A stretch of 24,000 nt of DNA. Source: Curtobacterium sp. MCJR17_020. GTDB lineage: Bacteria; Actinomycetota; Actinomycetes; Actinomycetales; Microbacteriaceae. Below the pieces are notes generated by a model. It was given only the letters and a program-made list of their open reading frames with translations, was not told the origin of the DNA and did no database searches. The stretch covers positions 2,829,172 to 2,853,171 of the forward strand of contig NZ_CP126260.1 of NCBI RefSeq assembly GCF_003234365.2. The letters run 5' to 3'. The translations under genes and the position numbers were made by a program. Of this stretch, positions 2,924 through 19,139 are shown piece after piece. Every line of letters starts with the position of its first letter. Position 1 is the first letter of the stretch.

Positions 2924-3700
2924 TCAGGCGGCCGGGGACTCCACGGTCTCGATCGTGCCGGTCGCTCCGGGGTGCTCGTAGTGCGCGCGCACCAGGATCG
3001 GACGGTGGTCGGAGATGCCCGCCGGCAGGGTCTCGACGCCGGCGATGTGCAGCCCGACGCTCGTCGCGAAGTCGAAGTGGCCCGTGAACTTGCGGTAGCG
3101 CAGGTACGTCGGCTGGTCGGACAGCGACAGTGCGAACCCGCCCTGCTCGATCTTGCGACGCAGGTTCGTCTGGAACCAGGGGTAGTTGAAGTCGCCGACC
3201 ATGACCGCGGGGACGTCCTTCGCGAGCTCGCGGAGGAACTGGTGCGCCGCCTCGATCTGCTTGCGGCGCAGGGAGTTCGTCGCGGTCAGCGGTGAGGCGT
3301 GGAACGAGGCGACGACGACCTCGGCGTCGGCCTCGGTGTCGCGCAGGTGCATCGCGATGAGCCGTTCGTGCGCGGGTGCGAGGACCCGGTCGTGCAGGGA
3401 CTTCTGCAGCGAGTGGATGCTGAAGTCCTGCACCTCGAAGCGGTCGTCGCGCTTGTAGATCGCGAGTCCGAGGCGGTTCGTGCGGGTCGACGCGGCGAGC
3501 GAGAGCCCACCGATCGACGGGGCCAGGTCGTTGCTGTCGCACTCCTGCACGCAGAGGACGTCGGCGTCGGAAGCCTCGGCCAGGGCGGCGAGTTCACCGT
3601 TCGCGGTGTGCTCGCGGAGGTTGTAGCTGACGACCCGGAGGGCAGTGGGCGGCACGCCTGCGTCGGTGGCGATCGTGCTCTGCTGTTCTGGCGCGGCCAT
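2924..3700 (-). CDS. Endonuclease/exonuclease/phosphatase (EEP) family protein
   Basis: 258 aa. LRVVSYNLRE near the N-terminus, VLCVQE, VMVGDFNYPW and SDHRPILV are the canonical EEP catalytic blocks. The SD-like aggaagg sits upstream of the ATG. Confidence 0.85.
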   Translation of the reverse strand: MAAPEQQSTIATDAGVPPTALRVVSYNLREHTANGELAALAEASDADVLCVQECDSNDLAPSIGGLSLAASTRTNRLGLAIYKRDDRFEVQDFSIHSLQKSLHDRVLAPAHERLIAMHLRDTEADAEVVVASFHASPLTATNSLRRKQIEAAHQFLRELAKDVPAVMVGDFNYPWFQTNLRRKIEQGGFALSLSDQPTYLRYRKFTGHFDFATSVGLHIAGVETLPAGISDHRPILVRAHYEHPGATGTIETVESPAA

Positions 3701-3864
3701 GCTGCCTTCCTGTCCGGGTGGTCCGGGTCACCCTGCCGCGGCAACCGTACTCGGCGTTCGCAAACGGATGCTGAGACTGTAACGCCTGTCGGGTTTCGCG
3801 CGTGTGACCGTGACGGAAACGGACAGTCGTGGGCTGCGCTCAGGGCCGCGTGGAACCGCGCGGG

Positions 3865-5274
3865 TCAGGCGCGGACCCGGCGGGCGGGGCGGACGGTGTC
3901 CCCCGCTGTGCGGCTCATCAGGATGCCCTCCACGCACGCGACGGCGAGCAGCGCCGCGATCACCCAGAACGCGACGGAGTACGGGCCGTCGCCACCGAGC
4001 CCGCCGGCCGCGCGGATCACGACCGCGGCGACGGCGACACCGAACCCGGCGGCGGTCTGCTGCAGCGTCGACGAGAGCGTGTTCGCCGGGGTCATGTCGG
4101 CCTGCTCGACGTCGGCGAAGGCGATGGTGTTGTACGCCGTGAAGCCGACGGAGCGGGCGGCGCCGCTGACGACGAGCAGGACCGCGAGCAGCCAGAACGG
4201 CGTGTCCTCGGTCATGAACGCCATCGCGACGACGGTCAGCGCCGCGATCGCACTCGACACGATGATCACCGGGCGGTAGCCGAACCAGCGCAGGAACGGC
4301 GTCGTCATCGGCTTGATGCCGAGGTTGCCGACGAAGACCCACAGCACGGCGGACCCGGCGAGCACGGCGCTCCAGCCCCAGGCGTCCTGGAACAGCAGCG
4401 GGAGCACGAACGGCACCGCGGAGACCGCCAGTCGGAACAGGCTGCCGCCGGCGTGCGACACCCGGAACGTCTCGAGGCGGAACGCCTCGAGCCCCATGAT
4501 CGGGTGCGGCGCCCGGCGGAAGTGCCGGATCGCGAACCAGCAGCAGACGGCACCGACGACACCGGACACCACGACGGCCAGGACCGGGATGACGTCGAGC
4601 GCGAGCAGCGACGCCATCACGACGAGCGACCCGAGGCCGAAGCACGCGAGCAGCGATCCGAACCAGTCGAACGGCACGCGCTGCGCGGCGCGCTCCTGCG
4701 GGACGAGCACGAGCGCGGCGACGAACGCGATGACGCCGAGCGGGATGTTGATCAGGAAGATCCAGTGCCACGTCAGGGTGTCGACGAGCACGCCGCCGAT
4801 GAACGGGGCGATGATCGGCGCGGCCAGGGCTGGCCAGGTGAGGATCGCGATGGCCGTGACGAGCTGCTCGCGGCCGGCGCTCCGGAGCACCACGAACCGG
4901 CCGACGGGCACCATGAGCGCACCGCCGAGCCCCTGCAGGATGCGCCAGAGCGTCAGGTCGACGAGGCCGGTCGACATCGCGCAGAGTGCCGACGCGATCG
5001 TGAAGAGCGCGATCGCGCCCGCGAAGACGGTGCGGGACCCGATCCGGTCGGTGAGCCAGCCCGAGACGGGGATGAACACCGCCAGGGTGACCAGGTACGC
5101 GGTGATCGCGACGCCGACGGCGGCCGAGTCGACACCGAGGTCACGCCCCATCGCGGGGGCCGCGGTCGCCAGGATCGTGCCGTCGAGGAGCTCCATGAAG
5201 AAGGTCCCCGCCACGAGCACGGCGACCGCCGTGCTGCCCGTCCGCCGTCTGGGTGTCGTCATCGTCGTCGCCAT
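3865..5274 (-). CDS. MFS transporter (DHA2/EmrB-like N-terminal motif)
   Basis: 469 aa and highly hydrophobic. FMELLDGTILATAAPAMGRDLG and PVSGWLTDRIGSR are MFS motifs. It is divergent from the deaminase operon. Confidence 0.88.
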   Translation of the reverse strand: MATTMTTPRRRTGSTAVAVLVAGTFFMELLDGTILATAAPAMGRDLGVDSAAVGVAITAYLVTLAVFIPVSGWLTDRIGSRTVFAGAIALFTIASALCAMSTGLVDLTLWRILQGLGGALMVPVGRFVVLRSAGREQLVTAIAILTWPALAAPIIAPFIGGVLVDTLTWHWIFLINIPLGVIAFVAALVLVPQERAAQRVPFDWFGSLLACFGLGSLVVMASLLALDVIPVLAVVVSGVVGAVCCWFAIRHFRRAPHPIMGLEAFRLETFRVSHAGGSLFRLAVSAVPFVLPLLFQDAWGWSAVLAGSAVLWVFVGNLGIKPMTTPFLRWFGYRPVIIVSSAIAALTVVAMAFMTEDTPFWLLAVLLVVSGAARSVGFTAYNTIAFADVEQADMTPANTLSSTLQQTAAGFGVAVAAVVIRAAGGLGGDGPYSVAFWVIAALLAVACVEGILMSRTAGDTVRPARRVRA

Positions 5275-5341
5275 GTCGCGTCAAAGGCTATGCCCGGTGC
5301 CGGGTCGCGGGGGGATCGTGTCGGGAGGTTCCGCGATCGTG

Positions 5342-5356
5342 TTTTGCATTGCAGAA
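5342..5356. promoter_or_regulatory. Candidate operator, site 1: 15-bp near-palindrome TTTTGCATTGCAGAA
   Basis: An AT-rich island in GC-rich DNA. 12 of 14 non-central positions are self-complementary, and 13/15 are identical to site 2 at 11379-11393. It lies about 70-80 nt upstream of both divergent starts (5274 and 5434). Confidence 0.5.
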
Positions 5357-5433
5357 TGATGCGCACCAGCGCGTTGCCCTGCGGGTCCGCCGAGCGGGAG
5401 CGTGGAGGCTGCGCGACGACAGGAGGCTCACCG

Positions 5434-6654
5434 ATGACCGACGCCGACACGACGACCGGGACCGTGACCACGAAGGGCGCCTGGGACCCGGCAGCGGGCA
5501 CTCCGCACCACGTCCTCGACCACGCCCACCTGCCCGTGATGACCCTGCGCGAGTCCGCCCTGGCGAACAACACCGCCGTCATGCAGGCCTACGTCGACCG
5601 CCACGGGCTGCTGTTCGCGCCGCACATGAAGACGCACATGGCGCCCGACCTCGCCGCGCGGCAGATCGACGCCGGAGCGTGGGGCGTGACGGTCGCGTCC
5701 GTGCAGCAGGCGATGGTCGCGTGGGAGCACGGGGTGCACCGGATCCTGGTCGCGAACGAGGTCCTCGACCCCGCCGGCCTCGCCTGGCTCGCGTCCCGGC
5801 GCACGGTCGACCCGGACGCCGACGTCCTCTGCTACGTCGACTCCGCCGCGGGCGTCACCGCCGCCGTCGCCGCGCAGGGCACCGTGGCCGGCGAGCTGCA
5901 CGTCCTGGTCGAACTCGGGTTCCCGGGCGGGCGCACCGGGGTCCGCTCCCCCGACGACGCGCGTGCACTCGCGCTGCTCGCCCACGACGCCGGGCTCGTG
6001 CTCCGCGGTGTCTCCGGGTACGAGGGCGGGCTGCCCGGCGTCGACGCTGCCCGCGAGTACGTCGCCGGTGTGCTCGACGTCGCCGAGGACGTCCGCGGGC
6101 TCGTCGACGGTCGCGGGCTCCTCAGCATGGGCGGCAGCGCCTGGTTCGACGCCGTCGTGGACGCCGTGGCGCGACGCACCGACGACCTCGACGTGCTGCT
6201 GCGGTCGGGTGCGTACCTGACCCACGACGACGGCTTCTACGCCGAGCGCACGCCCTTCGGCCGACACCCGGCCGAGGGCTCGCTCGTCGCCGCGATCGAG
6301 GTCTGGGGACGCGTGACGTCCTGCCCGGAGCCCGGGCTCGCGTTCGTCGCCGTGGGCAAGCGCGACATCTCCTTCGACGAAGGGCTGCCGGTGGTGCGGT
6401 CGGTGCGGCCGGCCCTGCCAGCAGGCCCGTCGGGCGCCACACAGGTCGTCCCACCGCCCGGGGCGGTCACCGTCACCCGCCTCGACGACCAGCACTGCTA
6501 CCTCGCGCTGGCGGACGGCGCCCCCGAGCTGACGCCCGGCGACGTCGTCGTGTTCGGCATCTCGCACCCCTGCACGGTGTTCGACAAGTGGCGGCAGGTG
6601 CACGTCCTGGCCGACGACGACACCGCGCTCCGGACGATCGCGACGTGGTTCTGA
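5434..6654 (+). CDS. Fold-type III PLP enzyme, D-serine dehydratase-like / putative amino (sugar) acid ammonia-lyase
   Basis: 407 aa from ATG 5434, preceded by aggagg at 5421-5426. The PLP-lysine motif APHMKTHM has its Lys codon at 5629-5631. A C-terminal GISHPCTVFDKW provides a His-x-Cys pair as in DSD1-type D-serine dehydratases. The upstream part of track ORF 3829..6654 is antisense to the MFS gene and not coding. Confidence 0.8.
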   Translation: MTDADTTTGTVTTKGAWDPAAGTPHHVLDHAHLPVMTLRESALANNTAVMQAYVDRHGLLFAPHMKTHMAPDLAARQIDAGAWGVTVASVQQAMVAWEHGVHRILVANEVLDPAGLAWLASRRTVDPDADVLCYVDSAAGVTAAVAAQGTVAGELHVLVELGFPGGRTGVRSPDDARALALLAHDAGLVLRGVSGYEGGLPGVDAAREYVAGVLDVAEDVRGLVDGRGLLSMGGSAWFDAVVDAVARRTDDLDVLLRSGAYLTHDDGFYAERTPFGRHPAEGSLVAAIEVWGRVTSCPEPGLAFVAVGKRDISFDEGLPVVRSVRPALPAGPSGATQVVPPPGAVTVTRLDDQHCYLALADGAPELTPGDVVVFGISHPCTVFDKWRQVHVLADDDTALRTIATWF

Positions 6655-7508
6655 TGCGCGCGACCACCGCGACCACCGCGGCCCCGGTGCCGACGGACGG
6701 CGACGGTCCTGCCCGGAACGCCGCACTGTCCCTGCGTCGCGGGCTCCGCCTGCTCGACTGCATCGCCGACCGGACCCGCAGCGGCGCGGTGTCCGTCAGC
6801 CTGTCCGTGCTGGCCGCCGAGCTCGGCACCTCGAAGTCGACGGTGCTCCGCCTGACGGCCCCGATGCTCGAGAACGACCTGCTGCGCCGCACCCCGGACG
6901 CCGGGTTCACGCTCGGCCTCGGCGCCCTGCTGCTCGGGCAGAGCTACCTCGAGGGGATCGACCTGCGCTCCGCCGCCGCACCGTTCCTGCGTCGCACGGC
7001 GGAGCAGACCGGGCTGACGTGCCACCTCGTCGTGCCGGACGGCACCGACATCGTCTACGTCGACAAGGTCGAGACCCGCGGCACCGTCCGCATGGGCTCC
7101 CGGATCGGGAACCGCCTGCCGATGCGGAACACGGCGTCCGGCAAGGCGATCGTCGCGTTCGGCGAACCGGAGCTGCTCGACCGGGTGCTCGCCGAACCGG
7201 CCCAGGTCATGACGGAGCACACCATCACCGACGACGACCGCTGGCGGCACGAGGTCGACCGCACGCACGGACGGGGCTACGGCATCGACGACCGCGAGAA
7301 CGAGCCGGACATCCGGTGCGTCGCCGCCCCGGTGTTCGACCACGCGAACCAGGTGGTCGGCGCGATGAGCATCTCCGGGCTGGCCTCGCGGTTCCCCGCA
7401 GCGGCGGTCCGCGAACTCGGCGACGGCGTCGTGCGGACCGCCCACGAGATCTCCGTCGCGCTCGGGTCCTCGTCGGCGCAGCTCGCCCTCGCACGGGGTG
7501 CCCGGTGA
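6654..7508 (+). CDS. IclR-family transcriptional regulator
   Basis: 284 aa. N-terminal wHTH (LSLRRGLRLLDCIA...LSVLAAELGTSKSTVLRLT) and a C-terminal IclR effector domain (YVDKVET, VRMGSRIGNRLPMRNTASGKAIVAF, GYGIDDRENEPDIRCVAAPV). The ATG overlaps the deaminase TGA by 1 nt (TGATG). Confidence 0.9.
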   Translation: MRATTATTAAPVPTDGDGPARNAALSLRRGLRLLDCIADRTRSGAVSVSLSVLAAELGTSKSTVLRLTAPMLENDLLRRTPDAGFTLGLGALLLGQSYLEGIDLRSAAAPFLRRTAEQTGLTCHLVVPDGTDIVYVDKVETRGTVRMGSRIGNRLPMRNTASGKAIVAFGEPELLDRVLAEPAQVMTEHTITDDDRWRHEVDRTHGRGYGIDDRENEPDIRCVAAPVFDHANQVVGAMSISGLASRFPAAAVRELGDGVVRTAHEISVALGSSSAQLALARGAR

Positions 7509-8482
7509 CCGGCTCGGTGCTGACGTTCGGCGAGACGATGCTGCTCCTGACCGGGCGCGACGTCGGCGCGGTGCCGGACCTGGAGCACATGCGGGTGGAC
7601 ACCGGCGGCGCCGAGAGCAACGTCGCGATCGGCCTGGTCCGCGCCGGGGTGCCGGCCACGTGGATCGGTCGGGTCGGCACGGACCCCGCCGGCGACCGGG
7701 TCGCCGCCGACATCGGTGGCGAGGGCGTCGACGTGCTCGCGGTCCCCGACGCCGAGCGCTCCACCGGCATCATGATGAAGGAGCGGCTGCTCGACGGCCG
7801 CACCCGGGTGACCTACCACCGCCGTGGTTCGGCCGGCTCGGCGTTGGCCGCGACGGACCTTCCCGCAAGCGTCGTCGAGACCGCTGCGCTCGTGCACGTC
7901 ACCGGGATCACCCTCGCGCTCTCCGAGTCCGCACACGACACCGTGACCGCGGCGCTCGACCGGGCGGCCGCCGCCGGCGTGCCGGTGTCGTTCGACGTCA
8001 ACCACCGGCCGAAGCTCATCGGCGCCGACGCTGCACGAGACCGGTACCGGGCCGTCGCAGCACGGTCCGCCGTGGTGTTCGCCGGCGACGACGAGGCCCG
8101 GCTCGTGCTCGGCCGCGACGACCAGGACGACGACGAGGAGTCACTCGCGCACGAGCTCGCCGCGCTGGCACGGGGCCGCGCGGTCGTGAAGCTCGGCTCC
8201 CGCGGTGCCGTGGCGTCGATCGACGGCGTGTTCGTCCGTCGGCCCGCGACCCCGGTGCGCGTCGTCGACCCGGTCGGTGCCGGTGACGCGTTCGTCGCGG
8301 GCTGGCTCGCAGCGAGCCTGGGTGGAGCGGGCGCCGCCGAGGCACTCGACCGGGCCGCCGACGCCGGCGCACTCGCCTGCACCGTCGAGAGCGACTGGCG
8401 CCGTCCGGACCCAGCCGCGTTGCACCACGCCCCGGACCCGTCGGACACCGACCACACCGTGCACGACCACGTCGACCGCTGA
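7505..8482 (+). CDS. kdgK: 2-dehydro-3-deoxygluconokinase (PfkB family)
   Basis: 325 aa. VLTFGETML, GGAESNVAIGL and the PfkB signature DPVGAGDAFVAG are present. The GTG overlaps the IclR stop (GTGA). It has an unusual His/Asp/Pro-rich C-terminal tail. Confidence 0.82.
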   Translation: MTGSVLTFGETMLLLTGRDVGAVPDLEHMRVDTGGAESNVAIGLVRAGVPATWIGRVGTDPAGDRVAADIGGEGVDVLAVPDAERSTGIMMKERLLDGRTRVTYHRRGSAGSALAATDLPASVVETAALVHVTGITLALSESAHDTVTAALDRAAAAGVPVSFDVNHRPKLIGADAARDRYRAVAARSAVVFAGDDEARLVLGRDDQDDDEESLAHELAALARGRAVVKLGSRGAVASIDGVFVRRPATPVRVVDPVGAGDAFVAGWLAASLGGAGAAEALDRAADAGALACTVESDWRRPDPAALHHAPDPSDTDHTVHDHVDR

Positions 8483-8537
8483 CGCCGTGTCTCCCCACAC
8501 CGTGTCCGCCGAACACCACCACTCGAGGAAGCGCACC

Positions 8538-9197
8538 ATGACGAACGACACCACGAGCACCGAAGAGCACGCCGCCGCACGGCACCGTCACCAGGCCGGA
8601 CCGGCGATCGCGATCCTCCGCGGCGGCACCGGCGACCACGTCGAGGACGTCATCGCCACCCTGGTCGACTCCGGCGTGACGGCGATCGAGATCACCACGA
8701 ACACCCCGCGCTGGCGCGAGGGCATCGCGTGGGCGGTCGATCGGTACGGTTCCGCGGCCTCCATCGGCGTCGGCACGGTGCTCGACGTCCGCCAGCTCGA
8801 CGAGGCCGCCGCTGCCGGTGCCTCGTTCGCCGTCAGTCCCCACCTCGACGCCGAACTCGGCGAGCGCGCGCACGAGCGTGGCCTCGGCTGGTACCCCGGT
8901 GCCGCGACCCCGACCGAGATCGTCCGCGCGTGGCGGCTCGGTGCCCGTGCGGTGAAGGTGTTCCCGGCGGCGCAGCTCGGCGGCCCCGCGTTCCTGAAGC
9001 AGGTCCTGGCACCGCTCGACTTCATCGACGTCATCCCGACCGGTGGCATCGGGGTCGACGACGCCCCGGACTACCTGGCCGCCGGTGCGGTCGCCGTCGG
9101 ACTCGGGTCCCCGCTCGTCGGCGACGCGCTGACCTCGGGCGACCTCGACGCCCTGCGGGAGCGGGCCGGCCGCCTCGTCGCGGCGCTCGACCGATGA
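8538..9197 (+). CDS. eda: 2-dehydro-3-deoxy-phosphogluconate (KDPG/KHG) aldolase
   Basis: 219 aa. AILRGG, TAIEITTNTP, the Schiff-base lysine block AVKVFPA, and PTGGI. SD-like gaggaa lies upstream of ATG 8538. Confidence 0.85.
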   Translation: MTNDTTSTEEHAAARHRHQAGPAIAILRGGTGDHVEDVIATLVDSGVTAIEITTNTPRWREGIAWAVDRYGSAASIGVGTVLDVRQLDEAAAAGASFAVSPHLDAELGERAHERGLGWYPGAATPTEIVRAWRLGARAVKVFPAAQLGGPAFLKQVLAPLDFIDVIPTGGIGVDDAPDYLAAGAVAVGLGSPLVGDALTSGDLDALRERAGRLVAALDR

Positions 9198-10840
9198 CCG
9201 GGCAGCAGCCCACCGGCGAGCAGTCCAGCGGCAGCGTCGTCCTGCTGCGCGGCGGGTCGGTTTTCGGTGCGGACGGGGCCCAGGTGCGCGCCGACGTCCT
9301 CGTCACCGACGCCGTCATCCGCGCCGTCGGTGCCGACCTGGACCCCCCTGCCGACGCGCACGTGATCGACTGCGACGGACGACTGGTGCTCCCGGGCTTC
9401 GTGGACGCGCACTCGCACGCCGGGTCGCTCGTGTTCGACGAGGGCGTGCAGCTCGCGCTCCTGCGCCAGGGCGTGACCACGATCGTGACCGGACAGGACG
9501 GCGTCGGACCGGCACCGGGCGACGGTTCGTACGCCGACACGTACTTCGCCGCCATCGACGGTCCGCACCCGACGTACCGCGGTGGCGGGGTCGACGGCCT
9601 GCTGACGACCTACGACGGCACGACCCCGGTCAACGTCGCGACGCTCGTGCCCGCCGGCACGGTCCGTCACCAGGTCATGGGCGACGACCCGGGGCCGGCG
9701 GACAGCGCGCAGCTGGCCGCGATGCAGGGGCTCGTGCGCGACGGCCTCGCAGCCGGCGCGGTCGGTCTGGCGACGGGGCTCGACTACGTCCCCGGTCTGT
9801 TCGCCGGCACCGCCGAACTCGCGGCACTCTGCACCGAGGTCGCTGCCGTCGACGGCCTCTACGTGTCGCACATGCGCGGCGGTTACGAGGGGAACGCCCG
9901 CGCCGGGCTCGACGAGATCGCCGAAATCGTCCGCGCGTCGGGCGTCCGGGCGCACGTCTCGCACCTGCACGCGCCCGTCGACCTCGCGGTGACCGTACTG
10001 GCCGCGCTCGAGGCGGAGGGCGCCCCGATGTCGTTCGACGCCTACCCGTACTCGCGCGGCTGCACGATCCTGTCGATGCTGCTCCTGCCCGCGGCCCTCG
10101 CCCGCCCCGGCACCGAGGACCTCGCCCACGCCGTCGCCGACGACGAGGGTCGCGCTGCGGTCCGGGCGGCCGTGCTCGACCGTGTGCTGTCCCGCGCCGA
10201 CCTCGGCACCGGATGGGCGGAGCAGATCACGCTGTCCCACGTGCCCGCCGCCGAGTTCCACGCGCTGCAGGGCCGCACCCTGGCCGACGCCGCCGAGGCG
10301 ACCGGGACGGACCCGGTGGACCTGGCCCTCGACGTCCTGGTCGACTCGGCACTGCAGGTCACCGCCGTGATGCGCGTGCCCCGTCCCCGGACCGCCGACG
10401 ACCTGGCACCGCTCTTCCGGCTGCCCGGGCACACGGCCGGTTCGGACGGCATCTTCGTGGGCACGCACCCGCACCCGCGGGCGTACGGCACGTTCGCGCG
10501 ATACCTGCAGGACTTCGCCCGCCCGGGGCTCCTGACCTGGCGCGAAGCCTCGCGGCACCTGTCCACCACCGCGGTCGAGCGACTCGGCCTCGGTCGACGG
10601 GGCGCAGTGGCCGTCGGGGCGGTCGCCGACCTCGTGGTCGTGGACCCCGATCGGGTCGCGGCGCGGTCGTCCTACGACGAACCGATGCGCCTGGCCGAGG
10701 GCATCGACGACGTCCTCGTCGCCGGTGTCCCCGTACTGGCCGACGGCGCTCTGACGCACGCGACCCCCGGTGCCGGGCTGCGTCGCCACCCGGGCCGGAT
10801 CGACCACGAGCAGGGAGCAGCGAGCACCGGGGGACGGTGA
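9194..10840 (+). CDS. N-acyl-D-amino-acid deacylase (D-aminoacylase) family amidohydrolase
   Basis: 548 aa. The ATG overlaps the eda stop (ATGA). It has the metal motif PGFVDAHSH (H73/H75), the family-typical GVTTIVTGQDG block, and YVSHMR. Length and architecture match D-aminoacylases. Confidence 0.82.
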   Translation: MTGQQPTGEQSSGSVVLLRGGSVFGADGAQVRADVLVTDAVIRAVGADLDPPADAHVIDCDGRLVLPGFVDAHSHAGSLVFDEGVQLALLRQGVTTIVTGQDGVGPAPGDGSYADTYFAAIDGPHPTYRGGGVDGLLTTYDGTTPVNVATLVPAGTVRHQVMGDDPGPADSAQLAAMQGLVRDGLAAGAVGLATGLDYVPGLFAGTAELAALCTEVAAVDGLYVSHMRGGYEGNARAGLDEIAEIVRASGVRAHVSHLHAPVDLAVTVLAALEAEGAPMSFDAYPYSRGCTILSMLLLPAALARPGTEDLAHAVADDEGRAAVRAAVLDRVLSRADLGTGWAEQITLSHVPAAEFHALQGRTLADAAEATGTDPVDLALDVLVDSALQVTAVMRVPRPRTADDLAPLFRLPGHTAGSDGIFVGTHPHPRAYGTFARYLQDFARPGLLTWREASRHLSTTAVERLGLGRRGAVAVGAVADLVVVDPDRVAARSSYDEPMRLAEGIDDVLVAGVPVLADGALTHATPGAGLRRHPGRIDHEQGAASTGGR

Positions 10841-10890
10841 CGCAGCGCAGCGAGGTGCCTCGGTGAGGCTTCACACAGCCTGTACCGACG

Positions 10891-11292
10891 TCACGAAGTG
10901 CTCGGCAGCACCGCCACGACGTCGATCTCGACCAGGATGTTCGCCAGGTGGGACTGCACGGTGGTGCGGACGGGGTACGGCTGCGAGAAGTGCTTCGCGT
11001 ACTCCTCGTTGAAGGCCGGGAAGTCGCGGTCGGAGTGCTCGAGGTGCACCGTGGACTTCACGACGTCGTCGAGCGTTGCACCGTGCTCGGCCAGCACCGC
11101 CGCGACGTTGGCCAGCACCTGCGCGGTCTGACCGGCCACGTCGTCGGCGATCGCACCCGTGGCGGGGTCCTGCGGGCCGAACCCGGCGGTGTAGATGAAG
11201 CCGTTGGCGACGATGCCCTGGCTGTAGGGCCCGGCGGGCTTCGGGGCGTTGTCGGTCACGATGGCGGTCTTCGGCGCGTTGGAGTTCGGCAC
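10891..11292 (-). CDS. ridA: RidA/YjgF-family reactive enamine/imine deaminase
   Basis: 133 aa. PKPAGPYSQG, FIYTAGFGPQDPATG, VVKSTVHL and RTTVQS...VEIDVVA are hallmark YjgF/RidA blocks. Confidence 0.9.
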   Translation of the reverse strand: MPNSNAPKTAIVTDNAPKPAGPYSQGIVANGFIYTAGFGPQDPATGAIADDVAGQTAQVLANVAAVLAEHGATLDDVVKSTVHLEHSDRDFPAFNEEYAKHFSQPYPVRTTVQSHLANILVEIDVVAVLPSTS

Positions 11293-11378
11293 GGTTCCTC
11301 CTGGGGTTCGTCGGTCGTCGGCGGAGACTCCAGGCTAGGCGGACGCCACGCGGTGGGGCCGACCACCCGACCAGCGCA

Positions 11379-11393
11379 TTCCGCATTGCAGAA
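11379..11393. promoter_or_regulatory. Candidate operator, site 2: 15-bp near-palindrome TTCCGCATTGCAGAA
   Basis: 12 of 14 non-central positions are palindromic (TTC-N-GCA-N-TGC-N-GAA). It shares the 11-mer GCATTGCAGAA with site 1. It lies 87-101 nt upstream of the ridA start (11292) and 107-121 nt upstream of the GT-C gene start (11500). Confidence 0.5.
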
Positions 11394-11499
11394 CGCAGGG
11401 CGGGCCTGGCGTCCGGGGTGCCGCACCGACCACCCAGGTGGAGGGCGACTACCCTGGCCGGGTGCCGTCCTCCCTGCCCGAACGCCGCGGAGCGCGCGC

Positions 11500-12741
11500 G
11501 TGAGCCGGCTCGACGGCGCGGTCACCGGGACCGCCGCGACCGGACGGCGCCGCGCACTCGACACCGTCACCTCGCTGCCGGCGTGGGCGGCCGTGCTGCT
11601 CGTCTGGACCGGCGGCCGGATCGTGTCGACGCTGTGGCTGGCACTCGCGTACCCGCTCATCGGACGGGCGATGCCGGACAACGCCATCTGGGGCAACGGG
11701 CACGGCTTCACGGCGTTCCTCACCGCCTGGGACGGCCAGTACTACGAGCAGATCTCGCTGCACGGGTACCCCGACGTGCTGCCGGTCGACGCCGTCGGCA
11801 ACGTGGCGCAGAACGCCTGGGCCTTCCTGCCGGCGTTCCCGTTCACGATCCGGATGCTCACCGCCTCGACCGGGCTGCCGTTCACCGTCGGCGCCCCGCT
11901 CATCTCCGTGCTGGCCGGTCTGCTGGCGACCTACCTGCTGCACCGCCTGGTCCGCGACCGTGCGGGCAACGCCGCGGCGATGTGGGCCGTGTTCTTCTTC
12001 ACGTGCGGGCCGCTGTCCTTCCTGCTGCAGGTCGGCTACGCGGAGAGCATGTTCCTCGCGCTCACGTTCGGCGCACTGCTCGCCCTGGAGCGGCGCCGGT
12101 ACGGGCTGCTCACCGTGCTCGGGGTCGCTGCTGCCTTCACCCGTCCGGGCGCATTGGCCGTCCCGCTCGTGCTCGGGGTCATCGCCCTGGTGCGGTGGGT
12201 CCGGGCTCGCCGTGAGACCGGGCGGGTGCTCGACACCTTCCCACTCCGCGAGCAGGTGCAGGTCGTGGCCGCCGGTGCCGTGATGGTGGTGGCGGGTCTC
12301 GCGTGGCCGGTCATCGCGTCGCACGTGACCGGCACGCCGAACGCCTACCTCGAGACCGAGATGTCGTGGTGGGTGAACTTCATCGGCCGCGTGGACTTCG
12401 TGCCCTTGTCGCCGTGGTTCCTCATCGCCGGGCGCTGGCTCGGCGTCGGTGGGATCCTGATCGTGGTGTTCCTGCTCGTCGGGTTCCCGATCTGGCTGCT
12501 CCGCCGGTCGACGAAGCGGCTCGGGTCGACGACCGTGCTGTACTCGGCCGCCTACGCGCTCTACATCTTCGCGGTGTCGCTGCCGATGGCCTCGACCCCG
12601 CGGCTGCTCATGCCCCTGGCGCCGTTGTTCGGCTCGCCGGAGCTCGTCGCCAAGCCGTGGATGCGGTGGACGTTCGTCACCGCGGCGCTGGCCGGGCAGC
12701 CGGTACTCGTCGCGGTGCTCTGGCTGCTCGGGCCTCCGTAG
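11500..12741 (+). CDS. Integral-membrane GT-C type glycosyl/mannosyltransferase (PIG-V / Mannosyl_trans2-like)
   Basis: About 413 aa from GTG 11500 (ggag lies 8 nt upstream; the start is uncertain). It has multiple TM helices and the WDGQYYEQISLHGYP motif typical of PIG-V-like mannosyltransferases. The upstream part of track ORF 10948..12741 is antisense to ridA. Confidence 0.7.
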   Translation: MSRLDGAVTGTAATGRRRALDTVTSLPAWAAVLLVWTGGRIVSTLWLALAYPLIGRAMPDNAIWGNGHGFTAFLTAWDGQYYEQISLHGYPDVLPVDAVGNVAQNAWAFLPAFPFTIRMLTASTGLPFTVGAPLISVLAGLLATYLLHRLVRDRAGNAAAMWAVFFFTCGPLSFLLQVGYAESMFLALTFGALLALERRRYGLLTVLGVAAAFTRPGALAVPLVLGVIALVRWVRARRETGRVLDTFPLREQVQVVAAGAVMVVAGLAWPVIASHVTGTPNAYLETEMSWWVNFIGRVDFVPLSPWFLIAGRWLGVGGILIVVFLLVGFPIWLLRRSTKRLGSTTVLYSAAYALYIFAVSLPMASTPRLLMPLAPLFGSPELVAKPWMRWTFVTAALAGQPVLVAVLWLLGPP

Positions 12742-13589: not shown

Positions 13590-14219
13590 TCAGGCGGGCT
13601 CGCGGATGGTGGTCTCGACGTCGACGACCTGCGGCACCCGCGGCATCGAGGCGAAGCCGAACGCCACGGGCGGGTCGAGCGGCGCCAGGGTGCCGAGGGG
13701 CTCCCCCGCCCAGGTTCCGCGCACGCCGGTGACGTCGTGGGCCCCGGTCACGCCGTAGTACTCGCGCCGACCGTTCCCTGCCGAGCCGGCGGTGCCGGAT
13801 CCGGGAGCGACGAGCCGGGCGAGCGGGTCGATCGCGGCGAGCCACCGCGGGTCGCGGGCGATCGGCTTCGGGACCACGCGGAGGATGCGTCCGAGCGGTG
13901 AGATCGTGCCGACGTCGACCGAGACCTGCAGGGCGCCGGCGTCGAGCTCCAGGCCACGGGCCGTCCGTCGAGCCCGCACGTCGACCACGGACACGGTGTC
14001 GAACCGGTAGGTGCCGGAGACGTAGGCGGCGACGATCTCGTCCGGTGCGAGCAGCACGCTGGTGCCGTCGGGCAGCTCGAGGAACACGTCGGTGAACGCC
14101 CCGAAGGGCGAGCGGTCCCACATCCCGACGACGATCCGGACGCCCGAGGTGGTGCCGACGCCCATGATCCGGCCGCGGAACCGGCGCTCGACGGGAGGGG
14201 TACTGGGACGTGACGGCAT
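13590..14219 (-). CDS. Conserved hypothetical protein (no family recognised)
   Basis: 209 aa from ATG 14219 (alternative ATG at 14165). Strong GC3 codon bias on the minus strand. Sequence FRGRIMGVGTTSGVRIVVGMWDRSPFGAFTDVFLE...GSAGNGRREYYGV. The upstream part of track ORF 13590..15041 overlaps the LLM gene out of frame and is not coding. Confidence 0.6.
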   Translation of the reverse strand: MPSRPSTPPVERRFRGRIMGVGTTSGVRIVVGMWDRSPFGAFTDVFLELPDGTSVLLAPDEIVAAYVSGTYRFDTVSVVDVRARRTARGLELDAGALQVSVDVGTISPLGRILRVVPKPIARDPRWLAAIDPLARLVAPGSGTAGSAGNGRREYYGVTGAHDVTGVRGTWAGEPLGTLAPLDPPVAFGFASMPRVPQVVDVETTIREPA

Positions 14220-15508: not shown

Positions 15509-16417
15509 ATGCCGAAGCTCCCTGACCAGACCGGACGCAGGATCATCGTCACCGGCTCCAACAGTGGCACCGGGAAGGAAGCCGCGACCCGTCTCGCGGC
15601 CGCCGGCGCGAGCGTCGTGCTCGCCGTGCGCACGACCGCGAAGGGCGATGCCGCCGCGGCCGAGATCCGCGCAGCCCACCCACGGGCCGATGTCGAGGTA
15701 CGCGAACTCGACCTGGCGGACCTGGCGAGCGTGCGCCGCTTCGCCGAGGGCATCGTCGGCGAGGACCGCCCGATCGACGTCCTGGTGAACAACGCCGGCG
15801 TCATGGCGCCGCCGCAGCGCTTCGAGACGGTCGACGGCTTCGAGTTGCAGTTCGGCACGAACTTCCTCGGCCCGTTCGCGCTGACGAACCTGCTGCTGCC
15901 CTCGCTGCTGCGTGCCGAGGCACCGCGGGTCGCGACCATGTCGAGCCTCGCCGCGATCCCCGGCCGGATCCGCTTCGGCGACCTGCAGTGGGAACGCGGG
16001 TACAACGGCTGGCGCGCCTACGGCCAGTCCAAGCTCGCCGACCTGCTCCTCGCACTGCACCTGCACCGGCTGACCGTCGAGGCGGACGTCCCCCTCGTCA
16101 GCACCGCGGCGCACCCCGGCTACACCCGCACGAACCTGCAGTCGGCCGGGCGCTCGCTCGGACGCGCGAAGCCGGTGCGGCCCAGCAACCGCGCGCTCCC
16201 CTTCACGCAGGCGGTCGAGCAGGGCACCGAGCCGCTGCTCTACGCCGCGGTCGGCCCGAACGCGGTCGGCGGCGCCTACTACGGCCCGGCCGGCCCCTTC
16301 GGCCTGACCGGACCGACGACCGCCGTCTCGATCCCCGGGTCGGCACGGAGCGCCGACCTCGCCCGCTCGCTCTGGGCCGTCGCCGAGGACCTCACCGGGA
16401 CGCGCCCGCCCCTCTGA
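15509..16417 (+). CDS. Short-chain dehydrogenase/reductase (retinol-dehydrogenase-like classical SDR)
   Basis: 302 aa. Cofactor motif [15 protein letters not shown], and catalytic YGQSK. Confidence 0.9.
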
Positions 16418-16430
16418 GCGCGGGGCGCGG

Positions 16431-16526
16431 CTCGCACGGTGCGAGGGCGCTGCGGTCTGGTGCGAGGTTCCGTACTCGGTGCGACAGACCGCGGCTCGCA
16501 CTGAGTACGGAACCTCGCACGGTGCG
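16431..16526. repeat. Complex inverted-repeat element: 26-bp stem hairpin plus flanking GTGCGAG/CTCGCAC heptamer copies
   Basis: Arms 16460-16485 (gtgcgaggttccgtactcggtgcgac) and 16495-16520 (ctcgcactgagtacggaacctcgcac) match at 24/26 positions, and one of the two mismatches is a G-U wobble in the plus-strand RNA. The loop is 9 nt. The 13-mer ctcgcacggtgcg repeats directly at 16431-16443 and 16514-16526. The element lies between the convergent SDR and NRDE genes. Confidence 0.65.
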
Positions 16527-16579
16527 CGGGCGCGGGGCGCGGCCGGGAGGCCCGTGGCGCGTCCGGCGCGACGCCCGCG

Positions 16580-17371
16580 TCAGGCGCGGTGCAGCTCCAC
16601 CGACCCGTCCAGCCGTCCGGGTTCGGTCAAGCGAGCGTGCTGCAGGACCGTGCGGTCCGGACCGATCGCCGCGGCGACGATCGACAGCGTCGTCATGTGC
16701 CCCTCGGCCTCGTGCGCGTCGCGGAGGATCGCGTCGGGGTGGTCGCTCGGCAGCGCAGCGGACTCGGCCAGGACACCGAACCACCCGCTCCACCCGTCTC
16801 CGGCGTCGTCGCCCGCGTCCACCGTCCGGAGTTCGTCGAAGGGCCCGAGCACCGGTGGCCCGACCGGGGCGTCCGCGGCACGGAAGGCCTCGAGCCACCG
16901 GCCGATGCGCGGCGCCGCCGGGTCGTCCGGTTCGCCGTGCGTCACCATGTGCACGCCGGGGCCGAGCTCGGTCGTGCGGACCCGCGTGCCGTCCCAGGTC
17001 AGGACCGCGGCGCCGTCGGCGGTCGCCCGCACCAGGTTGAACGCGCGGGTGGTCGGCAGCGTGCCGTCGTGTCCGGGCAACAGGTCGTCGGCGACGGCGT
17101 CGACCGGCACCACGCCGCGGGTCGTCCACGTGCCGTCGACACTCGGCACCGGTTCGCCGCGGTTGAGCACGACCGCCAGTCCGGCGCGGTCCGAGGCGGC
17201 GAGCCACGCACCGCCGGCAGCACGGTCGCGCACACCGCGGACCCCGGGGTCGCGATCGGGCCACCACGCAGCGGGCGGGTCCCACGGACGCTCGGGTGAC
17301 TCGTCCCGCAGGGCGAGCACGGTGACGGGCCACGCGGACCCGGGGTCGACGCGGACGACGACGGTGCACAT
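16580..17371 (-). CDS. NRDE/TANGO2-family protein
   Basis: 263 aa starting Met-Cys (MCTVVVRVDP), then LALRDE at the position of the family's NRDE motif, then GGAWLAAS...GLAVVLN and FNLV. These blocks are collinear with human TANGO2 blocks (MCIIFFKFDP, AANRDE, GGTWLGIS, LAALTN, FNLI) as I recall them. Confidence 0.75.
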   Translation of the reverse strand: MCTVVVRVDPGSAWPVTVLALRDESPERPWDPPAAWWPDRDPGVRGVRDRAAGGAWLAASDRAGLAVVLNRGEPVPSVDGTWTTRGVVPVDAVADDLLPGHDGTLPTTRAFNLVRATADGAAVLTWDGTRVRTTELGPGVHMVTHGEPDDPAAPRIGRWLEAFRAADAPVGPPVLGPFDELRTVDAGDDAGDGWSGWFGVLAESAALPSDHPDAILRDAHEAEGHMTTLSIVAAAIGPDRTVLQHARLTEPGRLDGSVELHRA

Positions 17372-17398
17372 GCCGTCGATCCTCGCACGTGCCCCCGG

Positions 17399-17404
17399 TA
17401 GCGT
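17399..17404 (+). promoter_or_regulatory. Candidate -10 hexamer (TAGCGT) consistent with leaderless coaBC
   Basis: It matches TANNNT and ends 7 nt before GTG 17412. It sits inside the 40-bp divergent spacer shared with the NRDE gene. Confidence 0.3.
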
Positions 17405-17411
17405 GAGCGGC

Positions 17412-18710
17412 GTGAACGCAGCAGCAGAGCGCACCCTGACCGTCATCGTGGGGATCACCGGGGGCATCGCCGCCTACAAGGCCGTCGGCGTGGTCCGCGA
17501 CCTCGTCAAGCGCGGGCACGAGGTGCACGTCGTCCCGACCGAGGGGGCGCTGCGCTTCGTGGGGCTGCCGACGCTCGAGGCGCTCAGCCGCAACCCCGTC
17601 ACCACGAGCGTCTGGGACGACGTGTCCGAGGTCCGCCACGTCGCCCTCGGCCGCCGCGCGGACCTGGTCGTGGTGGCCCCGGCGACCGCGGACTCCCTGG
17701 CACGGATGGCGAACGGCCTGGCGAGCGACCTGCTCGGCACGACGCTGCTCGCCACCGACGCCCCGGTCGTCGTCGCGCCGGCGATGCACCCGCAGATGTG
17801 GGAACACCCCGCGACCCGGGCCAACGTCGCCGTCCTGCGCGAGCGGGGCGTGCACCTGGTCGGACCGGTGGTCGGCGCACTGACGGGCGACGACGCCGGC
17901 ATCGGCCGGATGGCGGAACCCGAGGACATCGTCACCGCCGCGCTCGCCGTGCTGGACGGCCCTGCCGGTGCGGGGGCGGGGCGTCGCGCCGGCACCGACG
18001 GGGGCACGCAGTCCGGCGCCGGGGCCCGTGGCGAACAGGGCGACCTGTCCGGCGTCCGCGTGGTCGTCAGCGCGGGCGGTACCCGCGAACCGTTCGACCC
18101 GGTGCGCTTCGTCGGCAACCGGTCGAGTGGCCGGCAGGGCCTGGCGATCGCCGCCGACGCCGCAGCGCGCGGTGCCGTCGTCACCGTCGTCGCCGCGAAC
18201 GTCGAGGCCGGCCTGACGGCAGGCATCGACGCGACCGTCGTGCCGGTGGGGTCAGCGCTCGAGCTCGCCGAGGCCGTGCACGCCGCGGCGGTCGATGCCG
18301 ACGTCGTCGTGATGACCGCTGCCGTGGCCGACTACCGGCCTGCCGAGGTCCTCGCCGAGAAGCTCAAGAAGGACGCCCAGGGCGAGCGGATGACGCTCGA
18401 GCTGGTGCGGAACCCCGACGTGCTCGCCGACCTGGTGGCGGCCCGGCGCACCGGGCAGGTCATCGTCGGGTTCGCCGCCGAGACCGAACCCGACCGCGAC
18501 GCCCGCGTCGCACTCGGACGCGCGAAGATCGCCCGCAAGCCCGCCGACCTGCTCGTCGTGAACCACGTCGGCTGGTCGGCCGGGTTCGAGCGCGAGGAGA
18601 ACGCGATCGAGGTCCTGGTGCCGGGCGGCGAGGTGGTCCGCGAGACCTCGGGCACGAAGGCCGAGGTGGCGGCGGCGGTGCTCGACCTCGTCGCGACCGC
18701 ACTGACCTGA
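17412..18710 (+). CDS. coaBC: Bifunctional phosphopantothenoylcysteine decarboxylase / phosphopantothenate-cysteine ligase
   Basis: About 432 aa (in-frame alternative GTG at 17403). CoaC half: GITGGIAAYK, APATADSLARMANG, APAMHPQMW. A Gly/Ala-rich linker follows. CoaB half: SAGGTREPFDPVRFVGNRSSGRQG, AAVADYRP. The upstream part of track ORF 16479..18710 is antisense to the NRDE gene. Confidence 0.9.
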   Translation: MNAAAERTLTVIVGITGGIAAYKAVGVVRDLVKRGHEVHVVPTEGALRFVGLPTLEALSRNPVTTSVWDDVSEVRHVALGRRADLVVVAPATADSLARMANGLASDLLGTTLLATDAPVVVAPAMHPQMWEHPATRANVAVLRERGVHLVGPVVGALTGDDAGIGRMAEPEDIVTAALAVLDGPAGAGAGRRAGTDGGTQSGAGARGEQGDLSGVRVVVSAGGTREPFDPVRFVGNRSSGRQGLAIAADAAARGAVVTVVAANVEAGLTAGIDATVVPVGSALELAEAVHAAAVDADVVVMTAAVADYRPAEVLAEKLKKDAQGERMTLELVRNPDVLADLVAARRTGQVIVGFAAETEPDRDARVALGRAKIARKPADLLVVNHVGWSAGFEREENAIEVLVPGGEVVRETSGTKAEVAAAVLDLVATALT

Positions 18711-18731
18711 TTCCGAGGACGGGCGAGCACG

Positions 18732-19139
18732 ATGGAGGCCATGCGACGACGTGAGCGGATCAAACGAGCCACCCGGACTGCCACCCTGCTCGCGGTGCTG
18801 CTCGGCGGTGCCGGCGTCACCCACTTCCTGCAGCCGCGCCACTACGACCGGATCGTGCCGGACACACTGCCACCGCGCCTGACGACCGTCGCGTCCGGCG
18901 TGGCCGAACTCGGCATCGCCGCCGGGCTCGCGTTCCCGGCCACACGCCGGGCCTCGGGGTGGGCTGCAGCTGCCCTGTTCGCCGCGGTCTTCCCCGCGAA
19001 CGTGAAGATGGCGAACGACCTGCTCGACAGCCCGCGGTCGACCCGGGCGATGCGGTTGCTCTCCGTGCTCCGGCTCCCGCTGCAGGCCCCGCTCGTCCTG
19101 TGGGCCGTGCGCGTCGGTCGGCACGCACCGAAGCGGTGA
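18732..19139 (+). CDS. Small DoxX-like membrane protein
   Basis: 135 aa (alternative ATG at 18741). It has 3-4 TM segments, THFLQPRHYDRIVP and AVFPANVKMA. It starts 21 nt after the coaBC stop. Confidence 0.65.
   Translation: MEAMRRRERIKRATRTATLLAVLLGGAGVTHFLQPRHYDRIVPDTLPPRLTTVASGVAELGIAAGLAFPATRRASGWAAAALFAAVFPANVKMANDLLDSPRSTRAMRLLSVLRLPLQAPLVLWAVRVGRHAPKR

Follow-up and report, generated by a model that had tools for sequence, protein, structure and literature searches.

We analysed a gene cluster at positions 3865-11393 of a 24-kb window (the whole stretch of DNA under study) from Curtobacterium sp. MCJR17_020, a cluster that in our reading would serve the catabolism of an N-acetylated amino sugar acid; the analysis as a whole is based on sequence comparison, gene context and one AlphaFold2 (AF2) model. 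Five genes run together on the forward strand. They encode a pyridoxal-5'-phosphate (PLP) enzyme of fold type III from the OngC/3gwq 'D-serine deaminase-like' family (5434-6654; Pfam D-ser_dehydrat and Ala_racemase_N, both above cutoff), an IclR-family transcriptional regulator (6654-7508; Pfam HTH_IclR and IclR_C), a PfkB-family 2-keto-3-deoxygluconate (KDG) kinase, KdgK (7505-8482; Pfam PfkB, E = 2e-45), the 2-keto-3-deoxy-6-phosphogluconate (KDPG)/2-keto-4-hydroxyglutarate (KHG) aldolase Eda (8538-9197; TIGR01182 at 168.3 bits against a cutoff of 156.05, Pfam Aldolase E = 3e-39) and a Cys-less D-aminoacylase-fold amidohydrolase of 548 residues (9194-10840; Pfam Amidohydro_3, with a DAHSH motif). 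On the reverse strand, a DHA2/MdtD-like transporter of the major facilitator superfamily (MFS) is divergent from the operon (3865-5274; Pfam MFS_1, E = 2e-39), and a RidA-family enamine/imine deaminase is convergent with it (10891-11292; Pfam Ribonuc_L-PSP, E = 9e-29). Between the MFS and PLP genes lies a 15-bp palindrome, TTTTGCATTGCAGAA (5342-5356), a candidate IclR operator, and a second copy, TTCCGCATTGCAGAA, lies upstream of RidA at a distance of 87 nt from its start codon (11379-11393).

The ORF listing and domain scans placed all seven genes where the original prediction had put them, and the motifs it quoted (PHMKTHM, His-x-Cys, VKVFPA and DAHSH) are all present. The gene calls are supported by the coding signal, since codon-position GC gave a third-position GC content (GC3) of 0.91-0.97 across the frames of the locus. 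A five-gene operon with overlapping stop and start codons had also been proposed, and this description holds for three of the four junctions (TGATG at 6652-6656, GTGA at 7505-7508 and ATGA at 9194-9197) but not for KdgK-Eda, where a 55-nt gap separates the genes if Eda starts at ATG 8538. That ATG is preceded by a GAGGAAG ribosome-binding site. The operon genes in the window are translationally coupled. A promoter and terminator scan of 3700-11500 returned no sigma-70-like promoter and two intragenic terminator-like matches at chance level.

A deacetylase, deaminase and KdgK route that the original prediction had named for marine Pseudoalteromonas exists as described, in the eight-gene ong cluster of Pseudoalteromonas prydzensis ACAM 620, where N-acetyl-D-glucosaminate (GlcNAc1A) is converted by OngB, OngC and KdgK to KDG-6-phosphate (PMC9537276). 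OngB is a D-aminoacylase-like deacetylase and OngC a fold-type III PLP deaminase; the cluster also encodes RidA (OngD), a glycoside hydrolase family 20 (GH20) hexosaminidase (OngA) whose substrate is GlcNAc-GlcNAc1A, an RpiR regulator, a sodium/solute symporter (SSS) importer and a TonB receptor, and the gene for a lytic polysaccharide monooxygenase (LPMO) lies outside the eight genes as described (PMC9537276). Versions in Vibrio, Klebsiella and Serratia add a KDPG aldolase (KdgA), and the complete pathway has been reported only in Gammaproteobacteria and one betaproteobacterium (PMC9537276). For comparison, residues 7-396 of P. prydzensis OngB (PpOngB) were rebuilt from PDB alignments, and this fragment fetched 31 metagenomic ong loci, among them L008, which has an OngB 87% identical to PpOngB and the full eight-gene order.

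The PLP enzyme, which is 97% identical to its counterpart in Curtobacterium sp. PhB146, has the lysine motif PHMKTHM and a C-terminal SHPC (His-x-Cys) metal-site motif. Among solved structures the best match is 3gwq (E = 3e-68), which structural genomics has labelled a 'D-serine deaminase'; D-threonine aldolases match at 1e-21 or weaker, and the D-3-hydroxyaspartate enzymes also lie far below 3gwq. With OngC of locus L008 it shares 34% identity (201 bits), and identities of 31-37% were found both to the OngC-like homologues near OngB in 20 ong loci (over about 390 residues) and to 11 further OngC-like proteins besides that of L008. The actinobacterial and OngC-like clades have in common the motifs PH.KT.M.P (the PLP lysine), GGR.G, YEG, GGSA..D and SHPC..FDKW. 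In a simple neighbour-joining tree without support values, the actinobacterial PLP proteins form the sister of a proteobacterial clade, in which the OngC-like proteins are joined by 3gwq and by a Ralstonia protein encoded in an ong-like cluster, and are not nested within the OngC clade; both clades are distant from a D-threonine aldolase. NCBIfam has no equivalog model for the PLP enzyme or for the amidohydrolase. The expectation that the PLP enzyme would stand apart from the D-threonine aldolases is thus borne out by profile searches and phylogeny, which place it as an OngC homologue in a sister clade with identical catalytic motifs. By these comparisons the enzyme is a member of the OngC family, in the sense of shared family and not of proven orthology, and we predict that it acts as a 2-amino-2-deoxy-aldonate (glucosaminate) dehydratase/deaminase with KDG and NH3 as products. 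A homologue in Subtercola, 56% identical, stands solitary, outside any such cluster.

More distant relatives share the chemistry. The eukaryote-type D-serine dehydratase and D-threo-3-hydroxyaspartate dehydratase (3wqc) likewise belong to the fold-type III PLP enzymes, their C-terminal domain is of the D-ser_dehydrat type and their metal site a His-x-Cys one, and they beta-eliminate a hydroxyl from a D-alpha-amino acid, as is predicted for the window enzyme. However, 3wqc is only distantly similar (E = 4e-11), and these enzymes have small amino-acid substrates and no linkage to KDG genes. Separately, we observed that within the proteobacterial OngC-like clade 3gwq falls together with the Ralstonia protein, so a solved structure of the OngC family may already exist unrecognised.

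For the amidohydrolase the solved relatives are BbDam (7.5e-46), AfDam (2e-42) and PpOngB (1.5e-38), and its identity to OngB is 26%. In the GlcNAc1A site of OngB, zinc is bound by Cys97, His222 and His252, the carboxylate by Lys254, Tyr285, Ser291 and Arg379, and the sugar hydroxyls by Ser292, Glu226, Ser290 and Gln298, with small residues at 193, 256 and 348 (PMC12017989). Aligned in PpOngB numbering, the window enzyme retains the HxH motif, His222, His252, Tyr194, Tyr285, Asp368 and Arg379. Cys97 is replaced by Asp (GQDG versus GNCG) and Glu226 by Tyr; the enzyme has Asp at 193, lacks Lys254, reads Gly-Cys-Thr at 290-292, which puts Thr at 292, and carries an insertion of about 45 residues where Gln298 would fall. 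Because Cys97, Lys254, Ser292 and Gln298 are lost, its substrate is not readable from OngB. The Asp-for-Cys exchange (GQDG) recurs in all of the 59 other aligned members from actinobacterial clusters. Two subtypes can be told apart, one with Asp or Glu at 193 (including Curtobacterium and Embleya) and one with Thr or Ser (including Streptomyces and Amycolatopsis), and the pocket is polar at this position in both, compared with Phe in the hydrophobic AfDam. The AF2 model (pLDDT, a per-residue confidence score, of 88) gave Foldseek TM (structural similarity) scores of 0.84-0.88 to 1m7j, 3gip, 9g5m and 9kb1 (AfDam, BbDam, KleDacyl and PpOngB), and with all four in one range Foldseek failed to discriminate an OngB-like from a D-aminoacylase-like enzyme. 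Taken by alignment and fold, the protein belongs to a branch of the D-aminoacylase fold that is Cys-less and deeply divergent, and it is no OngB orthologue. The earlier assignment to the D-aminoacylase family therefore stands as regards the fold, HxH, the two His ligands and the catalytic Asp, but the enzyme is not of OngB type, as the bridging Cys and Lys254 are gone. We predict that it is an N-acetyl-aminoaldonate deacetylase, with the substrate assigned from gene context only.

Enzymes of this description have been met before. Cys-less D-acylases have been named 'cluster B', with Gox1177 and the Microbacterium natoriense D-aminoacylase as representatives, Cys-less D-acylases are known from Streptomyces too, and the review that describes them asks whether cluster B enzymes have another natural activity (PMC12149444). 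Like the window enzyme they have the D-aminoacylase fold minus the bridging cysteine of subtype V, a likeness of description and not of sequence comparison; they were assayed only as D-acylases, and gene context was not considered there. The subtype V enzymes AfDam (1m7j) and BbDam (3gip) share the fold (TM 0.87) and Thr at 292, as well as HxH, the two His ligands, the catalytic Asp and the Tyr and Arg binding the acetamido and carboxylate groups. The window enzyme differs from them in having Asp for the Cys ligand, no Lys254, a polar residue and not Phe at 193, about 45 extra residues in the lid/insertion domain, and a sugar-acid context where theirs is an amino-acid one.

Two further proteins were noted alongside the amidohydrolase. 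KleDacyl (PDB 9g5m/9gv8) was crystallised in 2025 as a 'D-acylase' of Klebsiella pneumoniae. All features of the OngB signature are found in it (Ala193, Ala256, Ser290-292 and Gln at 298), it matches the deacetylase of a Ralstonia ong-like cluster at 1.6e-160, and its action on N-acetyl-D-amino acids is weak (Km 19-32 mM); its native role is probably that of a GlcNAc1A deacetylase, the substrates assayed having been non-native ones. The second is a metagenomic fusion of 917 residues, P0186 (L039 6021-8774, Logan SRR25395303), which joins a Cys-less amidohydrolase to a fold-type III PLP domain and has as its neighbours IclR, a solute-binding protein, two Gfo/Idh/MocA oxidoreductases and a LacI/GntR-type regulator. 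Its amidohydrolase half is 41% identical to that of the window. We considered the fusion as a Rosetta stone for the window pair and rejected it, since identity to the window enzyme is only 23% in the PLP half; what the fusion backs is a coupling between the two classes of enzyme, not between the exact orthologues.

The best solved relative of the kinase is the Thermus KDG kinase 1v19 (E = 7e-42), followed by the KDG kinases 2var and 2dcn, and its best NCBIfam matches are KDG and 2-keto-3-deoxygalactonate (KDGal) kinases. These matches stay below the equivalog cutoffs, so specificity for KDG or KDGal is not fixed by them. The Schiff-base lysine motif VKVFPA of Eda could be read from its translation. 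RidA reaches 103.5 bits with TIGR00004, slightly under the cutoff of 106.25, and has the conserved Arg in PVRTT. For the regulator the best NCBIfam matches were BhcR, IclR and KdgR, all under their cutoffs.

The MFS protein had been described as DHA2-like, and its top NCBIfam matches agree, with MdtD at 255 bits and DHA2 EmrB at 219 bits, both under cutoff. The gene is syntenic in Curtobacterium ISL-83, in a Curtobacterium metagenome-assembled genome and in Curtobacterium sp. Leaf261, and GntP or ATP-binding cassette (ABC) transporters stand in for it in other genera; whether it belongs to the system is uncertain. Leaf261 (L042) has the gene order of the window plus an extra Sugar_tr/MFS gene (8591-9865) directly upstream of the PLP gene, which is absent from the window and may be the real importer. 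In the same genome a GAF/PucR-type regulator, an MFS gene and an alpha/beta hydrolase, none of them found in the window strain, lie between the amidohydrolase and RidA (15631-19586).

A comparison of Curtobacterium species brought the palindrome to light, with the consensus TTYTGCR-N-TGCAGAA; a generic inverted-repeat search of the promoter region had given nothing useful. With up to one mismatch, the pattern TTYTGCRNTGCAGAA occurs at just two sites in the window, against 0.00 expected by chance. Three other species of Curtobacterium have kept the palindrome upstream of the PLP gene, and the half-site TGCAGAAC is kept upstream of RidA in all four Curtobacterium loci examined, including that of Leaf261, where RidA lies 4 kb from the operon. 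A similar palindrome is present in the divergent promoter region of the Embleya cluster. We infer from this conservation that the palindrome is the operator of IclR, that IclR probably controls the operon and, separately, RidA through it, and that RidA would be part of the same regulon.

The neighbourhood was followed by scanning species-representative genomes with the PLP gene as anchor, which yielded at least 80 actinobacterial loci; partners were counted in 80 of them by tblastn probes, those for IclR and RidA being family-level. RidA accompanied the PLP gene in 58 loci, the amidohydrolase in 52, IclR in 49 and the KDG kinase in 43. Further partners were a GntP permease (28), a GH20 hexosaminidase (15), a sugar ABC transporter (10-11), Eda (8) and a lactonase (4). 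Unbiased clustering of all ORFs in the loci gave no further family conserved across taxa, and RpiR and SSS had no match in any of the 80 actinobacterial loci. Conservation of the gene association in related genomes, which the original prediction had proposed to examine, thus extends across Actinomycetota.

Gene order varies from genus to genus. In Tsukamurella it is RidA-IclR-kinase on one side and PLP-amidohydrolase-Eda-GntP on the other, in Microterricola RidA-IclR and amidohydrolase-kinase-Eda-PLP-lactonase, in Paramicrobacterium Eda-kinase and PLP-amidohydrolase-IclR, and in one Streptomyces GntP-RidA-IclR-kinase and PLP-amidohydrolase. Four Amycolatopsis genomes have RidA-IclR-KdgK opposite PLP-amidohydrolase-GntP-lactonase-solute-binding protein-permease-permease-GH20, confirmed by Pfam. 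The closest relatives outside Microbacteriaceae are Embleya and Yinghuangia, in which GH20 and a sugar-type ABC transporter are divergent from amidohydrolase-IclR-PLP-KdgK-RidA; the Embleya proteins share 48% identity with those of the window for the PLP enzyme, KdgK and the amidohydrolase alike and 64% for RidA. Judged by gene content, Amycolatopsis and Embleya carry full ong-like sets including GH20. The physical linkage to GH20, sugar ABC transporters, lactonase and GntP in several genera supports a tie between the cluster and chitin-derived oligosaccharides.

Some lineages lack the amidohydrolase. Micromonospora and Paractinoplanes have an EF_0837-like amidohydrolase beside RidA or the PLP gene instead, and Actinomadura, whose locus also has a monosaccharide-type ABC transporter, has an M20 peptidase and a metallo-beta-lactamase-fold (MBL) hydrolase. 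The replacement deacylases lie at L052 7113-8486, L047 6751-7953 and L055 7151-9099 (Micromonospora, Paractinoplanes and Actinomadura). In the Embleya locus L002 there is no amidohydrolase within 10 kb of the PLP gene, whereas other Embleya and Yinghuangia genomes have one beside the cluster. The deacylase step looks like a case of non-orthologous replacement, and the presence of substitutes where the amidohydrolase is missing suggests that the pathway needs a deacylation step but not one particular enzyme.

Co-occurrence with chitin genes was seen in part. GH20 is present in 15 of the 80 loci, but an AA10 LPMO was not matched in the window or the 80 loci by a CBP21 probe, which makes weak evidence, and chitinases of glycoside hydrolase family 18 (GH18) were not counted as linked. 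A GH18 chitinase-like gene does lie 3-7 kb off in 23 loci; we rejected it as a partner because Nramp and protease genes intervene and because it keeps company with other genes syntenic in Streptomyces only. Examples come from the Streptomyces loci L061-L114, such as L073 2572-3675, which encodes a secreted lipoprotein with a DGVDIDLE motif, and may reflect plain synteny. Curtobacterium itself is chitinolytic and has GH18 and GH20 genes, LPMOs having been outside the assessment of that paper (PMC8565777).

We consider it reasonably likely that the cluster is a regulon by which an N-acetyl-2-amino-2-deoxy-aldonic acid is catabolised. This acid would most likely be GlcNAc1A derived from oxidised chitin or chito-oligosaccharides, a candidate put first by the GH20, oligosaccharide ABC and lactonase partners. 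The acid would be taken up, possibly by the divergent MFS protein, and the amidohydrolase would strip the acetyl group to give the free 2-amino-aldonate, formally a D-alpha-amino acid. The PLP enzyme, with Lys66 as the Schiff base and a His378/Cys380 metal site, would then eliminate the C3 hydroxyl to give an enamine/imine, whose hydrolysis to KDG and NH3 would be sped up by RidA. KdgK would phosphorylate KDG to KDPG, and Eda would cleave KDPG to pyruvate and glyceraldehyde-3-phosphate. The chemistry from PLP elimination to Eda cleavage is established for these families and for OngC; in the window we infer every chemical step from homology and gene context. All computational checks came out in favour of the aminoaldonate-catabolism reading of the original prediction, corrected for the type of amidohydrolase and for the gene junctions.

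Several observations weigh against this proposal. The amidohydrolase lacks four PpOngB residues, one that binds metal (Cys97), one that binds the carboxylate (Lys254) and two that hold sugar hydroxyls (Ser292 and Gln298), and D-acylase activity has been reported for such Cys-less enzymes (review PMC12149444). OngC also deaminates D-Ser and D-Thr (PMC9537276). A Pantoea homologue within the actinobacterial PLP clade adjoins an amino-acid ABC transporter and a racemase, so the clade is not functionally uniform. The sole adjacent transporter, the MFS protein, looks like a member of an exporter family, and the 24-kb window contains no GH20, lactonase, LPMO or chitinase gene. Finally, the kinase and aldolase match the KDGal and 2-keto-3-deoxy-6-phosphogalactonate (KDPGal) models of NCBIfam nearly as well as the KDG and KDPG ones, and gluco and galacto substrates, which differ in C4 stereochemistry, would not be separable by these models.

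This last point bears on an alternative that keeps the same downstream chemistry and changes the origin or stereochemistry of the substrate. If the aldonate arose from a dehydrogenase or oxidase acting on free N-acetylglucosamine (GlcNAc), N-acetylgalactosamine (GalNAc), N-acetylmannosamine (ManNAc) or glucosamine (GlcN), in the manner of an Entner-Doudoroff-like route, then the lactonases in the Microterricola and Amycolatopsis clusters, the two oxidoreductases flanking the fusion gene P0186, the MBL hydrolase with the monosaccharide-type transporter in Actinomadura and the negative LPMO probe would all fit, and the near-equal KDGal/KDPGal matches would fit a galacto or manno epimer. In 10-15 loci, however, GH20 and an oligosaccharide-type ABC transporter speak for oligomers that carry an N-acetylhexosamine at the non-reducing end, which matches the OngA substrate, and in Pseudoalteromonas, too, the lpmo gene is found outside the ong cluster (PMC9537276). 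We regard this alternative as unlikely, though worth keeping in view.

A second alternative would see a true D-aminoacylase feeding a D-Ser/D-Thr dehydratase in an N-acyl-D-amino acid route, with RidA quenching aminoacrylate and KdgK and Eda as unrelated neighbours. The D-acylase activity of Cys-less enzymes, Thr at 292 as in D-aminoacylases, the action of OngC on D-Ser and D-Thr and the amino-acid transport context of the Pantoea homologue speak for it. If KdgK and Eda were unrelated neighbours, however, KdgK would hardly overlap the IclR stop codon and Eda the amidohydrolase start codon, nor would KdgK occur with the PLP gene, in several different gene orders, in 43 of the 80 loci; a D-Ser or D-Thr route would have no use for GntP, GH20, lactonase and sugar ABC partners, and the amidohydrolase pocket is polar, not hydrophobic. 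Because of the KdgK/Eda coupling and the sugar-type partners we judge a plain N-acyl-D-amino-acid route very improbable. That the amidohydrolase cuts another bond (in a lactone or lactam form, a longer N-acyl derivative or a glucosaminate amide), with free D-glucosaminate also taken up, is conceivable because the carboxylate-binding Lys254 is lost, with Glu226 changed to Tyr in all actinobacterial members, an insertion of about 45 residues exactly where PpOngB reads the sugar tail, and no amidohydrolase near the PLP gene in Embleya L002, but its chances appear slight given the retained HxH and the acetamido-binding and catalytic Tyr194, Tyr285, Asp368 and Arg379, the amidohydrolase beside the same cluster in other Embleya and Yinghuangia genomes, and the deacetylase-type replacements (EF_0837-like and M20) in some lineages.

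Returning to the proposed catabolism of GlcNAc1A, the reaction order predicted for the window is that of the ong system, with N-deacetylation, PLP-dependent deamination to KDG, RidA, KDG kinase and, as in the Vibrio, Klebsiella and Serratia versions of ong, KDPG aldolase. The PLP enzymes of the two are homologous and have the same motifs, and the relatives in Amycolatopsis, Embleya and Micromonosporaceae have GH20 attached, just as ong has OngA, whereas the window has none. The differences lie in the other parts. The predicted deacetylase of the window comes from the Cys-less branch, its RidA and KdgK are 27% and 23% identical to the ong versions, its regulator is an IclR protein where ong has RpiR/MurR (OngR), and transport relies on MFS, GntP or ABC systems in actinobacteria versus an SSS symporter (OngIT) and a TonB-dependent receptor in ong. 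The host is a Gram-positive soil or plant bacterium, in contrast to the marine Gammaproteobacteria of ong. An amino-aldonate route of Salmonella also uses a PLP enzyme to give a 2-keto-3-deoxy sugar acid and ends in cleavage by KDPG aldolase, as proposed here, but there phosphorylation comes first through the phosphotransferase system, the PLP enzyme is of another fold, and neither a deacetylase nor a KDG kinase takes part.

An ong-like cluster was also observed in a plant-pathogenic betaproteobacterium, on the megaplasmid of Ralstonia solanacearum CFBP 8697 (L006, 3852-11083). It comprises eda, a GntP/DsdX-type permease, RidA, an OngB-like gene, an RpiR/SIS regulator, an OngC-like deaminase and a sugar kinase; in this strain the OngB-like gene (6363-7910, reverse strand) seems to carry a frameshift close to its 3' end, and the gene table of the record does not list it. 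Elsewhere the Curtobacterium window encodes a methionine-type ABC transporter, an EEP-family protein and a membrane glycosyltransferase-like protein, besides unrelated genes. The transporter (33-2613; MetQ/NlpA lipoprotein, NIL-domain ABC ATPase and permease) is an ordinary methionine-type importer and is syntenic in Leaf261, and two ORFs with strong coding signal (GC3 0.93), at 13590-14219 on the reverse and 22061-22951 on the forward strand, have no Pfam match.

The pathway had been called uncharacterised in Actinomycetota, and a literature search likewise gave no report of it in Actinobacteria. What is new here is the deacetylase lineage, the regulator, the transporters and the phylum; the pathway logic and the PLP family were already known. 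For a broader statement the balance seems to us even: that Actinomycetota, the main soil chitin degraders, carry a widespread, independently assembled pathway for oxidised chitin, in which Cys-less 'D-aminoacylases' would be the physiological deacetylases, replaced by EF_0837-like or M20 enzymes in some lineages, and an IclR repressor would act through TTYTGCR-N-TGCAGAA. Soil actinobacteria and fungi are rich in LPMOs, yet what becomes of the C1-oxidised products of these enzymes has so far been worked out only in marine Gammaproteobacteria. For chitin turnover on land, that gap would be closed by a conserved module in actinobacteria. Such a module would also give a natural function to the Cys-less D-acylase-like amidohydrolases, whose role the D-acylase review has questioned, and would be a clear case of one pathway built twice with different deacetylase, regulator and transporters. 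If this is true, oxidative use of chitin would be a general bacterial trait, not a marine gammaproteobacterial one.

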